NCBI GenBank assembly: GCA_002839645.1 | Contig: PGYL01000012.1 | Location: 12,706 to 76,705, forward strand | Length of the DNA: 64,000 nt | Reading direction: 5' to 3' | Source of the DNA: Methanomicrobiales archaeon HGW-Methanomicrobiales-2 | Lineage (GTDB): Archaea > Halobacteriota > Methanomicrobia > Methanomicrobiales > Methanoculleaceae | Shown: positions 50,080 to 59,172 of the stretch, one piece after another | How positions within the stretch are numbered: the first letter of the stretch is position 1 | Layout: every line of letters starts with the position of its first letter | Notes under the pieces: generated by a model | What the model was told of the DNA's origin: nothing | What the model saw: the letters and a program-made list of their open reading frames with translations, nothing else | Database searches by the model: none | Position numbers and translations under genes: made by a program

Positions 50080-50131
50080 TATAAATATTCACAATTGTTA
50101 TCTATGGTAGGTGAGATTAACAATTGTTAAT
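50080..50131 (+). promoter_or_regulatory. Promoter of the tRNA-Cys/pscS operon with two palindromic operator boxes
   Basis: TATAAATA (50080-87), TTCACAATTGTTAT (50088-101) and the perfect 16-bp ATTAACAATTGTTAAT (50116-131). Confidence 0.75.
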
Positions 50132-50142
50132 CCCCACGCCCT

Positions 50143-50214
50143 GCCGAGGTGGCGGAACGGCTACGCGGTTGACTGCAGATCAACTACATCCCGGTTCGAC
50201 TCCGGGCCTCGGCT
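50143..50214 (+). tRNA. tRNA-Cys (GCA)
   Basis: Acceptor GCCGAGG/CCTCGGC, U73, anticodon arm GTTGA-CTGCAGA-TCAAC with G37, T arm CCCGG-TTCGACT-CCGGG. Confidence 0.96.
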
Positions 50215-50225
50215 TGAGGTATCCC

Positions 50226-51599
50226 ATGAAAGAACAGGTTCAGAAGACGTTCGAAGCGCTCTTTGCACTCGAGGATATCCGAGAGGTGTTCCGGGAGGCG
50301 CTCCCGACCGGTCCCGGGCCCGACGAGGAGCGGGCCATCCGCGAGGGTGTCGCCCGGGTCCGGGCAATTCTCGACGACCTGGAGGCGGGGAGAGGCTCCC
50401 CGACGGTCACGAAGATCGCCGGCACCCTCGATATCCGGAACCGGGAAGAGGCATATATCAACATCCAGCCGATCCAGGCCGCCGGCCGCCTGACTCTCGA
50501 AGCCCGGAAGGCGCTCATCGCCTACGGCGACGGCTACTCCACCTGCGACGCCTGCCGAAAGCCCTTCCGCCTCGACAAGATTACAAAGCCCCCCATCGCG
50601 GCGTTCCACGAGGATCTCGCCCGGTTCCTGAACATGGACGTGGTCCGCGTCGTTCCCGGAGCACGCCGGGGGTTCCAGGCGGTCGCCTCCACGCTTGTAG
50701 AAAAAGGCGACCCGGTCATCGTCTCATCGCTCGCCCACTACACGGAGTTCCTGGCGGTCGAAGGGGCGGGCGGCGTCGTGAAGGAGGTCCCGCTTTCGAA
50801 AGGGAACCTCGTCAGTCCCGACGCCGTCGCCGCAAAGATCGAGGACGTCGTCCGCGAGACCGGGAGGACGCCGCCGCTCGTCATGATGGACCACGTCGAC
50901 TACCAGTTCGGGAACGTCCATGACGTCGCGGGCATCGCGAAGGTCGCTCACCAGTACGACATCCCGTTCCTCCTCAACGGGGCCTATACGGTCGGGACCA
51001 TGCCCGTCGACGGTAAAGCGATCGGGGCCGATTTCGTCGTCGGCTCCGGACACAAGAGCATGGCCTCCCCCGCCCCGTCCGGGGTCCTCGCCGCCACCGC
51101 CGAGTGGGCGCCGCGGGTCTTCCGGACGACGGCGATGACCGGAGACCTCACCCACCGGAAGTTCGGGATCAAGGAGGTGGAGATGCTCGGCTGCACCCTG
51201 ATGGGGGCGAACCTCATCGCCATGATCGCCTCGTTCCCGACCGTCCGGGAGCGGACCCTCCGCTGGGACGAGGAGGTGAAGAAGTCCAACCACTTCATCG
51301 ACGGCCTCCTTGCCATCGAGGGGACGAAGGTTCTCTCCGAGTACCCGCGGAAGCACACCCTCACCAAAGTGGACACCACCGGGAGTTTCGACACCGTCGC
51401 CGCGACCCACAAGCGGCGGGGCTTCTTTCTCTCCGACGATCTCTCGGGACGCGGGATCGCCGGGGAGTTCGCCGGCGCCACCCGGACCTGGAAACTGAAC
51501 ACCTTCGGCCTCTCCTGGAAGAAGATCCGGTACCTGACGGACGCCTTCCAGGAGATTGCCGCGAAATACGATCTGAACGTCAGGAAAGAATCAGCATGA
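50226..51599 (+). CDS. pscS: Sep-tRNA:Cys-tRNA synthase (SepCysS) with an N-terminal helical extension
   Basis: [36 protein letters not shown] (PLP lysine), LGCT; GAGGT Shine-Dalgarno at 50216-20. Confidence 0.93.
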
Positions 51600-56263: not shown

Positions 56264-57196
56264 ATGGGACGGATATACCATGACATCACCTGGACGATCG
56301 GGAACACCCCGCTCGTCCGGCTGAATCGGGTGACGGAAGGCTCCCGGGCGACGGTCCTCGCCAAGGTGGAGTCGTTCAACCCGATGGGGAGCGTGAAAGA
56401 CCGGATAGGGGTCGCGATGATCGACGAGGCCGAACGGGCCGGCGAGATCCGGGAGGGGACGACGATCGTCGAGGCGACGAGCGGGAACACCGGGATTGCA
56501 CTTGCGTTCGTCTGCGCGGCCCGCGGCTACCCGCTCAGGCTCGTGATGCCCGAGACGATGAGCATGGAGCGGCGCAAGCTCCTCGCAGCACTTGGTGCCG
56601 AGGTGGTCCTCACGCCCGGGGCCGGGGGGATGAAGGGAGCGGTCGACCGTGCGGCCCGGATCGCCGCCGAGAGGCCGGACACCTACTTCGTGCCCCGGCA
56701 GTTCGAGAACCCGGCGAACCCCGCCGTCCACCGCCGGACGACGGCCGAGGAGATCTGGCGGGACACCGACGGGACCGTCGACGCCGTCGTCGCAGGCGTC
56801 GGGACGGGCGGGACAATCACCGGGGTTGCCGAGGTCCTCAAGGCGCGAAGACCGTCCTTTAAGGCGATCGCCGTCGAACCGGTGGAGTCCCCCGTCCTCT
56901 CCGGAGGACCGGCCGGCCCGCACCGGATCCAGGGGATCGGGGCCGGGTTCGTGCCGCAGGTGCTCCGGACCGATCTCGTCGACGAGGTATTCCAGGTCAC
57001 CTCCGCGGATGCCTTTGCGATGAGCCGCCTGCTTGCCCGGAAGGAGGGGATCCTCGCTGGCATCTCGTCGGGCGCGGCTGTCCACGCCGCCTGTGAGGTT
57101 GCCCGCCGGCCGGATTACGAGGGGAAGGTTATCGTCGTGATCCTCCCGGATACCGGCGAGCGGTATCTCTCGACGGATCTCTTCGAGGCGCAGTAG
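56264..57196 (+). CDS. cysK: Cysteine synthase A (O-acetylserine sulfhydrylase)
   Basis: [44 protein letters not shown]. Confidence 0.96.
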
Positions 57197-57210
57197 GGGG
57201 ACGGAACGCG

Positions 57211-58164
57211 GTGAACCTCAGGGAGGATATCCGGACAGTCTTTGCAAAAGACCCGGCGGCCCGGTCGACGATCGAGGTGATCTGCTGCTACCCGGGCCTC
57301 CACGCGATCTGGGCGCACCGGATCGCGCATGCCTTCTATCGCCGCCGGCTCTACTTCCCGGCCCGTCTGGTCTCTCATATCGCCCGGGCGCTGACCGGGA
57401 TCGAGATCCACCCCGGAGCGAAGATCGGCCGCCGGGTCTTCATCGACCACGGCTCAGGCGTCGTGATCGGGGAGACGGCGGAGGTTGGGGACGACGTCCT
57501 GATCTACATGGGTGTGGTGCTCGGCGGCACCGCGCTCGAGCAGACGAAACGGCACCCGACCATCGAGGATAACGTCGTCATCGGGTCGGGGGCGAGCGTT
57601 CTCGGCCCCATCACCGTCGGGCGCGGGGCAAAGATCGGCGCCGGTTCGGTCGTCGTCCACCCCGTCCCCGCCGGTGCGACGGTCGTGGGCGTTCCGGGCA
57701 GGCTTGCCGGCCCAAAGTGCCAGAAGGGCCAGGAGAAACTCGACCGTGGCGATCTCCCCGACCCGATGCTCCGGGTGGTCAGCCGCATGCTTGATAGGCA
57801 GAATCGGATCGAAGAGCGGCTCCGGGCGGTGGAGCGGTCGGGTCTGGTTGGCGATAAACGGCGGGAGGAGATCGTAATCGAGGAGAGCGTCCGGGCGGCA
57901 CTTAAAGAAGTGATCGACCCGGAGGTCGGGATCGACGTCGTCGACCTCGGTCTGATCAAGGGGATCACCGTCCAGGACTCCTCGGTGCTTGTGGAGATGG
58001 TCCTGACCACCGCCGCCTGCCCGCTCGTCGACTACCTTACTGACCGGGTCCGGCGCCGGGTGCTTGACGTGAGCGGCGTCCGGGACGTCGAGGTCCGGGT
58101 GCTCGACGAGCCCTGGGACTGGGACCGGTTCTTCGGTCAGAGGGACGTTCTCAGGGAATTCTGA
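57211..58164 (+). CDS. cysE: Serine O-acetyltransferase fused to a C-terminal SufT/DUF59 (FeS_assembly_P) domain
   Basis: KDPAARS...[32 protein letters not shown]; linker PDP; then DPE-X27-T-X3-C domain ([15 protein letters not shown]...LTTAACP). Confidence 0.92.
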
Positions 58165-59137
58165 AGTCGGGTTTACCGGGGAGGTCCAGCATCCGCCGGA
58201 TTGCCGTCCGCGCCCGGGCGGCGGTATCCTCCGGGACCGTCACCCGCGGCTCGAGCCGTTCGAGGGCCGCGAGCACCTTTGCGAGATCGGTCTTCTTCAT
58301 GTTGACGCAGACCGCCTTATTCGAGAGGGGGTAGAAGACTTTCCCCGGGCACTTCTTTTCGAGCTGGTGGAGGAGCCCGACCTCGGTGCCGATGACGAAC
58401 TCCCGTCCCGGACTTGCGCAGGCGTGCCGCACCATCCCTGAGGTCGAGAAGACGTGATCGGCAAGGTCGATCACCTCGGGCCGGCACTCGGGGTGGACGA
58501 GCACCTCGGCGTCCGGATGGGCCCGGCGGGCTTCCTCCACATCCCCGGCCGTCATCCGGTCGTGGACGATGCAGTAGCCATCCCAGGGGAGGATCTCTTT
58601 TTTGGTGAACCGGGCGACGTAGCGGCCGAGGTTTCGGTCGGGGAGGAAGATCACCTGCTCTGCGTCGAGCGACTCGACGACGGCGACGGCGTTTGCGGAG
58701 GTGCAGCAGATGTCGCTCTCCGCCTTCACTTCGGCCGAGGTGTTGACGTAGGCGACGACGGCGGCGTCCGGGAACCGCTCGCGGAGCACCCGGACCTCGC
58801 CGGGGGCGACCATCTCCGCCATCGGGCAGCAGGCGTCGGCTGCGGGGAGAAGGACAGTCTTTGCCGGCGCGAGGATCGCGGCCGTCTCGGCCATGAAGTC
58901 GACGCCGGCAAAGACGATGACGTCGGCGTCGATCGCCGCCGCCGCCCGTGCGAGTTCGAGCGAGTCCCCGACGAGGTCGGCGACCTCCTGCACCTCGGGG
59001 ATCTGGTAGTTGTGCGCGAGGATGACGGCGTCGCGCTCCTCTTTCAACGCGGCTATCCGTTCGGCGAGGGTTCGATCGGGACTGGTGGACGGGATGGTAT
59101 CACAACCTCTTCTGGTCAAAGGTGCAGCCTTCTTCAC
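58151..59137 (-). CDS. nadA: Quinolinate synthase NadA
   Basis: ILAHNYQ, GDSLEL, GVDFMAE, CPMA, YVNTSA, CCTSANA, HPEC, STSGM, CVNMK; true start uncertain (GTG at 59137 or ATC at 59095). Confidence 0.94.
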
Positions 59138-59172
59138 AAACGTTATCCCTGCGCAACCTTAACAATTGTGAA
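59133..59172. promoter_or_regulatory. Second pair of the ACAATTGT operator boxes, between divergent nadA and the 59214 ORF
   Basis: TTCACAAACGTTAT (59133-46) and TTAACAATTGTGAA (59159-72). Confidence 0.7.

Follow-up and report, generated by a model that had tools for sequence, protein, structure and literature searches.

This work deals with four short AT-rich palindromic boxes, and with the genes behind them, in a 64-kb stretch of a Methanoculleus genome (C45:12706-76705 of the assembly), hereafter the window. A first-pass annotation of this DNA had taken the boxes for operators of a candidate sulfur and iron-sulfur (Fe-S) regulon, to which it could assign no regulator. We assessed their sequence, rarity and conservation, and the results support a regulon for sulfur and Fe-S metabolism that is conserved and seems not to have been described before. 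They also point to one specific candidate repressor, i.e. a 107-amino-acid (aa) XRE-like helix-turn-helix (HTH) protein, here termed Cys-HTH, which is encoded in the same genome on another contig (C40:52279-52602). In this Methanoculleus and in many related methanogens, the palindromes are very probably docking sites of this small cysteine-bearing DNA-binding protein, which would turn off genes of cysteine, sulfur-transfer and Fe-S cofactor metabolism as well as the sole tRNA-Cys gene of the cell.

Boxes and genes in the window

The first pair of boxes lies in the promoter of the tRNA-Cys/SepCysS operon. Its TATA box TATAAATA (50080-50087, + strand; assigned from the archaeal promoter consensus), preceded by a purine-rich stretch resembling a transcription factor B (TFB) recognition element (BRE), is abutted by box 1 (TTCACAATTGTTAT, 50088-50101), found by reading the sequence and by pattern scan. 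Box 2 (ATTAACAATTGTTAAT, 50116-50131), a perfect 16-mer palindrome, is located about 33 bp downstream of this TATA box and 12 nt before the mature 5' end of the tRNA; as with the other boxes, no strand applies. A weaker second TATA-like element, CTATGGTAGG, stands immediately before box 2 and resembles elements of the single-box tRNA-Cys promoters of relatives, so that the pair may serve either one promoter or two tandem promoters.

The earlier description of this promoter needs one correction, as the first gene behind boxes 1 and 2 is tRNA-Cys(GCA) and no protein gene (50143-50214, + strand; ARAGORN, Rfam tRNA 56 bits). It is the sole tRNA-Cys among the 44 tRNA genes detected by ARAGORN in the assembly. 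On the same strand follow the genes of SepCysS (Sep-tRNA:Cys-tRNA synthase, with an N-terminal extension of about 60 aa; 50226-51599; NF006810 621.8 bits, TIGR02539 407.4 bits), MetY (O-acetylhomoserine sulfhydrylase; 51596-52891; Pfam Cys_Met_Meta_PP 4.9e-136, TIGR01326 646.6 bits) and MetX (homoserine O-acetyltransferase fused to two CBS domains; 52884-54362; NF001209 539 bits, Pfam CBS), then the uncharacterised pair DUF1890 (54353-54841) and DUF1894 (54820-55110; Pfam 3.2e-50 and 3.3e-33, respectively). The series is completed, again on the + strand, by ThiI (tRNA 4-thiouridine/thiamine sulfurtransferase; 55107-56243; TIGR00342 273.2 bits), CysK (56240-57196; TIGR01139 460.7 bits) and a CysE fused to a SufT-like FeS_assembly_P domain (57211-58164; TIGR01172 242.1 bits, PF01883).

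The second pair occupies the gap between nadA (quinolinate synthase, a [4Fe-4S] enzyme; 58151-59137, - strand; NF006878 426.2 bits) and the divergent orf115 (59214-59561, + strand), a regulon member by its position behind the boxes that encodes a conserved hypothetical protein of 115 aa with several cysteines. Box 3 (TTCACAAACGTTAT, 59133-59146) is degenerate, with three mismatches, and is the weakest of the four; box 4 (TTAACAATTGTGAA, 59159-59172) lies within the divergent promoter. This gap holds no separate TATA box and boxes 3 and 4 are its sole AT-rich elements; each of them possibly covers the TATA region of one promoter together with the start of the opposite one. All four boxes of the first-pass annotation are thus in place, and its centre spacings of 29 and 26 bp agree with the sequence (start-to-start and centre-to-centre distances being the same). 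The word 'bracketing' that it used for their arrangement around the sulfur cluster carries no special meaning, the pairs belonging to two separate promoter regions.

The product of orf115 matched no family in Pfam or NCBIfam and no DNA-binding domain was detected in it. Its 95 homologues in Methanomicrobiales and Methanosarcina (about 55 % identity for the latter) are all named 'hypothetical'. The placement of orf115, divergent from nadA and behind a predicted operator, gives a first functional lead, to sulfur or Fe-S metabolism.

The listed open reading frame (ORF) of nadA begins with the GTG at 59137, and the conserved start is probably near 59095. Between 59090 and 59140 no ATG, GTG or TTG is conserved where the orthologues begin; relatives keep neither the upstream GTG (59137) nor the TTG (59119), and in G015 the frame of this GTG is closed. 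In the alignment of relatives, Methanoculleus nadA shows a conserved Shine-Dalgarno-like GGTTGTGATACC followed directly by ATC (ATT in G003), and the gene may use a non-canonical AUC or AUU start.

Distribution of the motif in the genome

The degenerate pattern TTMACAAWYGTKAW, which covers all four boxes, gave six strand-matches in the 64-kb window, corresponding to the four boxes, with 0.00 expected; none of 100 dinucleotide shuffles contained any match, which bears out the earlier view that the boxes are unlikely to have arisen by chance. For the boxes of this genome the predicted operator consensus can be written R-TTMACAATTGTKAA-Y. Scanning the whole assembly (2.78 Mb, 61 % GC) with TTMACAATTGTKAA yielded four perfect copies and one with a single mismatch, all five in promoter gaps of sulfur genes. 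Altogether six motif sites occur at four loci in 2.78 Mb, each in the promoter gap of sulfur genes, and the motif is restricted to these four promoter regions. Elsewhere in the genome, sites with up to two mismatches had no sulfur context and lay beside unrelated genes or inside ORFs.

Beyond the window, perfect copies were found only twice in the whole assembly, at C45:77279 and C40:52220. The former, 574 bp past the end of the window, carries TTCACAATTGTTAA in the promoter of a radical S-adenosylmethionine (SAM) gene (330 aa, - strand) whose 3' part is in the window (63527-64000). On the other side of this site a SAMP2/ThiS-like gene, with a product ending in GG, is followed by a gene for an NcsA/TtuA-type tRNA thiolase (ncsA). 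The C40:52220 site is flanked on one side by iscS-iscU-thiF (E1-like)-moaD-like and on the other by the gene of the 107-aa HTH protein, then by LarE-like, SufS-like and FdhD genes.

Conservation of the motif and its neighbours in relatives

The perfect 14-mer was recovered in 25 of 41 relatives, and the reversed control pattern in none. About 50 regions from 30 genomes were then compared with the annotated genes of the window genome after gene calling by a codon-bias script. Within 450 bp, sites are faced by the 5' ends of 142 genes; 116 of these are homologous to sulfur genes of the window genome, i.e. LarE, IscS, the HTH gene, NadA, SepCysS, radical SAM, NcsA, SAMP, orf115, ThiF, SufS-like, CysK, FdhD and ThiI; other genes facing sites encode IscU, MoaD, MoaE, ThiM, PdxS and SufBD. 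A symmetrised profile built from 93 sites reads R-TT-M-ACAATTGT-K-AA-Y. Tandem sites were spaced 29 bp apart in seven cases (mostly at one orthologous promoter) and otherwise by 20-32 bp.

Footprinting across the order showed that the motif is kept at the orthologous tRNA-Cys/SepCysS, nadA, iscS, SAMP-ncsA and cysK promoters. The flanks of the palindrome diverge freely between species and the palindrome itself is strict. Four more families of the phylum show the same arrangement, the motif taking local forms such as ATAACAATTGTTAT. This conservation upstream of orthologues, together with the confinement to sulfur genes and the share of sulfur homologues among the neighbours, supports the sulfur and Fe-S regulon that had been proposed for the boxes.

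At the tRNA-Cys/SepCysS promoter, GAAG(A/G)TATAAATA directly adjoins box 1 in six Methanoculleus genomes. Box 1 is kept at the same position in G009, G019, G014, G015 and G016, with equivalents in G025, G035 and G038, and box 2 is invariant among the Methanoculleus relatives. Counterparts of box 2 precede tRNA-Cys genes by 6-13 nt in several families, and more than ten genomes have a tRNA-Cys at that distance behind a box, some of them in several copies. Where a single box serves other tRNA-Cys genes, 6-8 nt separate it from the mature 5' end behind it, and a TATA-like element is found 2-9 nt ahead of it. In G035, G036 and G038, cysK-cysE stands behind a box of its own.

At the nadA promoter, box 4 is kept in 13 of the genomes examined. 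When three mismatches were allowed, four other Methanoculleus genomes also showed a degenerate copy like box 3 in their nadA promoters, again offset by 26 bp from box 4; among such relatives of box 3, that of G014 is identical and those of G015 and G018 are variants.

The DUF1890-DUF1894 pair is also found behind box copies in G026, G031, G036 and G134. In the first three it comes after an FdhD-like gene, beside a paralogous regulator, and in G134 it lies immediately before a tRNA-Cys gene.

The linkage of tRNA-Cys, SepCysS and sulfur genes, with SepCysSn either fused or split, was noted by Mukai et al. 2017 (PMC5424206), where the words 'regulat...' and 'promoter' are not used and neither an operator nor a regulator is described. 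Our literature searches on the motif, on COG2522 and on sulfur or Fe-S regulators of methanogens retrieved nothing relevant to the motif or to its regulator.

Candidate regulator

Cys-HTH and its orthologues are annotated simply as 'transcriptional regulator' or 'helix-turn-helix domain-containing protein'. Pfam HTH_3 (PF01381) matches the 107-aa protein with E = 9e-5 and 22.9 bits, the gathering cut-off being 23, and many orthologues carry a precomputed PF01381 match. The family profile matches a lambda repressor-like PDB chain (E = 0.0036). In the AlphaFold2 model (predicted local distance difference test, pLDDT, 81), helices are predicted at residues 12-26, 31-37, 42-50, 61-75 and 82-99, forming an all-helical core in which helix 2, a turn and helix 3, the presumed recognition helix, are present. 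Foldseek searches with this model returned ClgR, HigA and XRE-like proteins as best matches, only at E of about 0.8-2. Solved structures offered no counterpart to two features, the PC motif at the N-terminus and the helical hairpin with its CxxC at the C-terminus.

The family is large (at least 682 clusters at 50 % identity) and its cysteines are well kept. Cys5, Cys87 and Cys90 never vary among close relatives; of 125 distant family representatives about 86 % keep them, and about 71 % of the 125 have a fourth cysteine within 22 residues after the CxxC. Such a pattern would fit an Fe-S cluster as well as zinc, or a thiol or persulfide switch. By rough estimate, an Fe-S cluster has slightly less than an even chance, a thiol-based switch is a good deal less likely, and a structural metal together with another signal is a little less likely again.

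A distant paralogue of Cys-HTH (about 33 % identity; C37:40775-41032 in this assembly) is found in every Methanoculleus genome, motif present or not.

Co-occurrence and covariation of candidate regulator and predicted operator

No DNA-binding gene other than that of Cys-HTH goes with the motif in every lineage. In genomes of eight families (f1-f7 and f15), a palindrome lies 34-66 bp upstream of the ATG of the Cys-HTH gene, preceded in several families by a TATA-like element at 12-15 bp, and in the promoter of the regulator's own gene the box covers the predicted transcription start. Within Methanoculleus, the motif was present in all 13 genomes with a Cys-HTH orthologue, and all 11 genomes devoid of the motif were also devoid of the orthologue; one incomplete genome had a copy of the motif and no detected gene. 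The SepCysS promoters of eight genomes examined among those 11 showed no motif even at three mismatches. The site is therefore conserved upstream of orthologues and follows the presence of the regulator.

In these regulator-less Methanoculleus genomes (L094-L101), SepCysS is only about 67 % identical to that of the window, SepCysSn is a separate small gene, and neither a tRNA-Cys nor the motif is found upstream; the genus thus has two alternative SepCysS loci.

At the scale of the phylum, 301 genomes were sampled, the Cys-HTH gene being called at E <= 1e-24 and the motif core compared with a reversed control. The 138 genomes with the gene contained 406 core motifs versus 101 control matches, and the 163 genomes without it 61 versus 58. 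Gene presence and motif presence were associated with an odds ratio of 26, uncorrected for phylogeny.

Residue 41, which caps the predicted recognition helix (residues 42-50), covaries with operator position 3/12, threonine going with A and alanine with C. Genomes with a Thr41 regulator had 68 A-type versus 14 C-type half-sites, and those with an Ala41 regulator 12 versus 48. Genomes with both kinds of regulator (G014, G015 and G036) contain both operator types, each beside its own regulator gene.

Additional regulators come with gene sets of their own. A second island of G014 and G015 (L060-L063) encodes a second regulator (57 % identity, Ala41) with only TTCACAATTGTGAA-type sites. Its further content comprises additional tRNA-Cys genes, another SepCysS and PdxS, together with a small winged-helix gene and a RACo-like ASKHA protein. 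G026, G031 and G036 carry a paralogous regulator (about 40 % identity, extra cysteines, Thr41) with its own TTAACAATTGTTAA site; an aminotransferase, a LysA-like decarboxylase and an OB-fold protein follow (assigned by reading the sequences and not by family search). G026 and G031 have one more site before moaD-thiM-x-thiF.

The partial copy TTCACAATTG that the first-pass annotation had reported at 17291, before an MFS gene, does exist, and a TATA box 27 nt upstream on the strand of that gene gives it promoter-like geometry. Its membership of the regulon did not hold, as its conservation is independent of the regulator: among 12 Methanoculleus genomes, the half-site was intact in the regulator-less G004 and decayed in the regulator-bearing G009, G010, G014 and G015.

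Proposed mechanism and alternative explanations

We consider it likely that the boxes are operators of the homodimeric, XRE/Cro-like Cys-HTH protein, acting as a repressor. What the data show directly is the motif with its rarity and conservation, the way it goes with the gene, and the covariation; that the protein binds, that it represses and what it senses are inferences. Binding as a dimer is suggested by the 14-16 bp palindrome and by the covariation of residue 41 with position 3. Cys-HTH would grip the palindrome through its recognition helix, residue 41 helping to read operator position 3/12; once bound, it would let the TATA-binding protein (TBP) and TFB bind and block RNA polymerase, also at its own gene (autorepression). 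The signal would most likely be read by the cysteines, either through an Fe-S cluster or through a thiol/persulfide switch. A short supply of sulfur or Fe-S clusters would then release the mobilisation of sulfur, the synthesis of cysteine and the tRNA that carries this synthesis.

The regulon predicted in this way would comprise (i) in region 1, tRNA-Cys, SepCysS, metY, metX, DUF1890, DUF1894, thiI, cysK and cysE/sufT; (ii) in region 2, nadA and the divergent orf115; (iii) in region 3, the radical SAM gene, divergent from SAMP2-ncsA; and (iv) in region 4, iscS-iscU-thiF-moaD, divergent from the regulator and the larE-, sufS- and fdhD-like genes.

The sign of regulation is suggested by promoter geometry. 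Archaeal activators usually bind upstream of BRE/TATA, and a site between the TATA box and the start is where archaeal repressors (MDR1, Phr, LrpA) block the recruitment of polymerase, which favours repression. The boxes appear to sit just downstream of a TATA box or across a predicted start, where a bound protein would be expected to block polymerase, and the earlier suggestion that the placement suits a repressor agrees with this geometry. It is unlikely that Cys-HTH instead activates, or acts in both directions according to promoter and cofactor state, in the manner of IscR with its type 1 and type 2 sites. Complete shut-off of the sole tRNA-Cys gene is impossible, a factor bound in the nadA/orf115 gap, where a separate TATA box is lacking, might help to recruit TBP, and the tandem spacing is variable (20 to 32 bp), all of which would fit such a mode of action; wherever a TATA box is recognisable, however, the box comes immediately downstream of it or over the predicted start, which is the position of repressors.

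The boxes might also be operators of another DNA-binding protein, the Cys-HTH gene being merely a member of the regulon, which we regard as quite improbable. Possible binders are orf115, a small winged-helix protein or an unlinked factor. The uncharacterised orf115 adjoins box 4, but it was rejected as a regulator because it shows no DNA-binding domain and has a narrower distribution, adjoining sites in no more than about seven genomes among those examined. An 84-aa HTH_24 (small winged-helix) protein faces sites in G014, G015 and G038, but in these three genomes only, whereas Cys-HTH is linked to the motif in every lineage and its residue 41 follows the operator subtype.

It is very improbable that no regulator binds the boxes and that they are instead part of the core promoter, AT-rich promoter sequence arisen by chance or relics of a repeated mobile element: AT-rich sequence does gather in promoters of a 61 % GC genome, boxes 3 and 4 are the only AT-rich stretches of the nadA gap, and G027 carries the same 14-mer 13 times without a regulator orthologue, but a separate canonical TATA box precedes box 1, the motif is found in only four promoter regions of the genome, the palindrome is strict between freely diverging flanks, enrichment over the reversed sequence is seen only where the HTH gene exists, and Rfam gave only tRNA matches.

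Two candidates were set aside in this context. The 13 dispersed copies of TTAACAATTGTTAA in G027 (L086-L088) represent an unrelated repeat, two of the three examined copies lying inside a repeated 593-aa ORF, probably of a mobile element, with further copies inside a 181-aa ORF (one) and intergenic (one). An RNA element at the boxes is unlikely, as only a weak AU hairpin could form and no Rfam family but tRNA was matched.

Several points weigh against Cys-HTH as the repressor. Its HTH_3 score is just below the cut-off (22.9 vs 23 bits), and no solved structure matches the whole protein, by sequence profile or by fold search. In the phylum sample, 17 genomes carry the gene without a perfect 12-mer core. 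Independent Thr/Ala switches are few, perhaps 3 to 5, and the co-occurrence and covariation statistics ignore phylogeny. Part of the co-occurrence within the genus may reflect linkage and not function, because the regulator and many targets share one genomic island in most Methanoculleus. Boxes 3 and 4 may double as TATA boxes. Finally, full repression of the sole tRNA-Cys gene would be lethal, so that control there must be partial.

Implications for sulfur metabolism in methanogens

Hardly any other organisms use as many Fe-S proteins as methanogens, whose sulfur is acquired in the form of sulfide. No transcription factor for their cysteine, sulfur-carrier or Fe-S assembly genes was found described in the literature searched; the present finding supplies a putative operator, a named candidate regulator gene and a regulon that many families of the phylum share. 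It also ties uncharacterised genes to sulfur trafficking, i.e. DUF1890, DUF1894, orf115, the radical SAM protein and the LarE-like and SufS-like proteins. Control of a tRNA gene by a transcription factor, as predicted here, would be unusual in archaea; it makes biological sense for tRNA-Cys, because cysteine is made on this tRNA in these organisms.

More tentatively, and with odds that we place below even, Cys-HTH could be the master sensor of sulfur and Fe-S status in class II methanogens and their relatives, an analogue of IscR and CymR built on an unrelated Cro-like scaffold, which would read an Fe-S cluster or persulfide through Cys5, Cys87 and Cys90 and would be unique in throttling the only tRNA-Cys gene together with SepCysS. 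If this is true, the supply of the cysteine-making tRNA, and hence the decoding of Cys codons, would be tied directly to the availability of sulfur.

Comparison with known systems

The gene clusters of Mukai et al. 2017 (PMC5424206) resemble those described here in the linkage of tRNA-Cys, SepCysS and sulfur genes. As for the regulator, its best matches in sequence and fold are the Cro/C1 proteins (XRE, HTH_3: lambda cI, HigA, ClgR), with which Cys-HTH would share the five-helix HTH core, binding as a dimer to palindromes of 14-16 bp, frequent autoregulation and tandem operators; these matches are weak (22.9 bits in Pfam, just below its cut-off of 23; E = 0.004 for the PDB profile and about 0.8 for Foldseek).

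SurR of Thermococcales is an archaeal sulfur-responsive regulator that acts via a CxxC and controls sulfur-related operons. This winged-helix protein, about 230 aa long, recognises GTTn3AAC and acts as a switch for genes of hydrogenases and sulfur reduction. Our candidate resembles it in a loose sense; here a protein of 107 aa with an XRE-like HTH is predicted to use the site TTMACAATTGTKAA in front of biosynthetic targets.

SufR and CymR of bacteria resemble Cys-HTH in their presumed function, but Cys-HTH is not a member of their families. A functional analogy can be drawn with IscR (Rrf2, [2Fe-2S]; related to CymR and NsrR), a small dimeric regulator with three conserved cysteines and a variable fourth ligand, traits that Cys-HTH would share; its gene likewise stands beside iscS-iscU and is probably autoregulated, and its predicted palindromic sites are in Fe-S assembly and cysteine promoters. 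The two folds are nevertheless unrelated, Cys-HTH being XRE/Cro-like with no match to the Rrf2 domain (PF02082) in Pfam or NCBIfam at E up to 0.01, and the operator sequences differ. The regulon here differs from that of IscR as well, by the addition of SepCysS, tRNA-Cys, ubiquitin-like sulfur carriers, tRNA thiolation genes and nadA.

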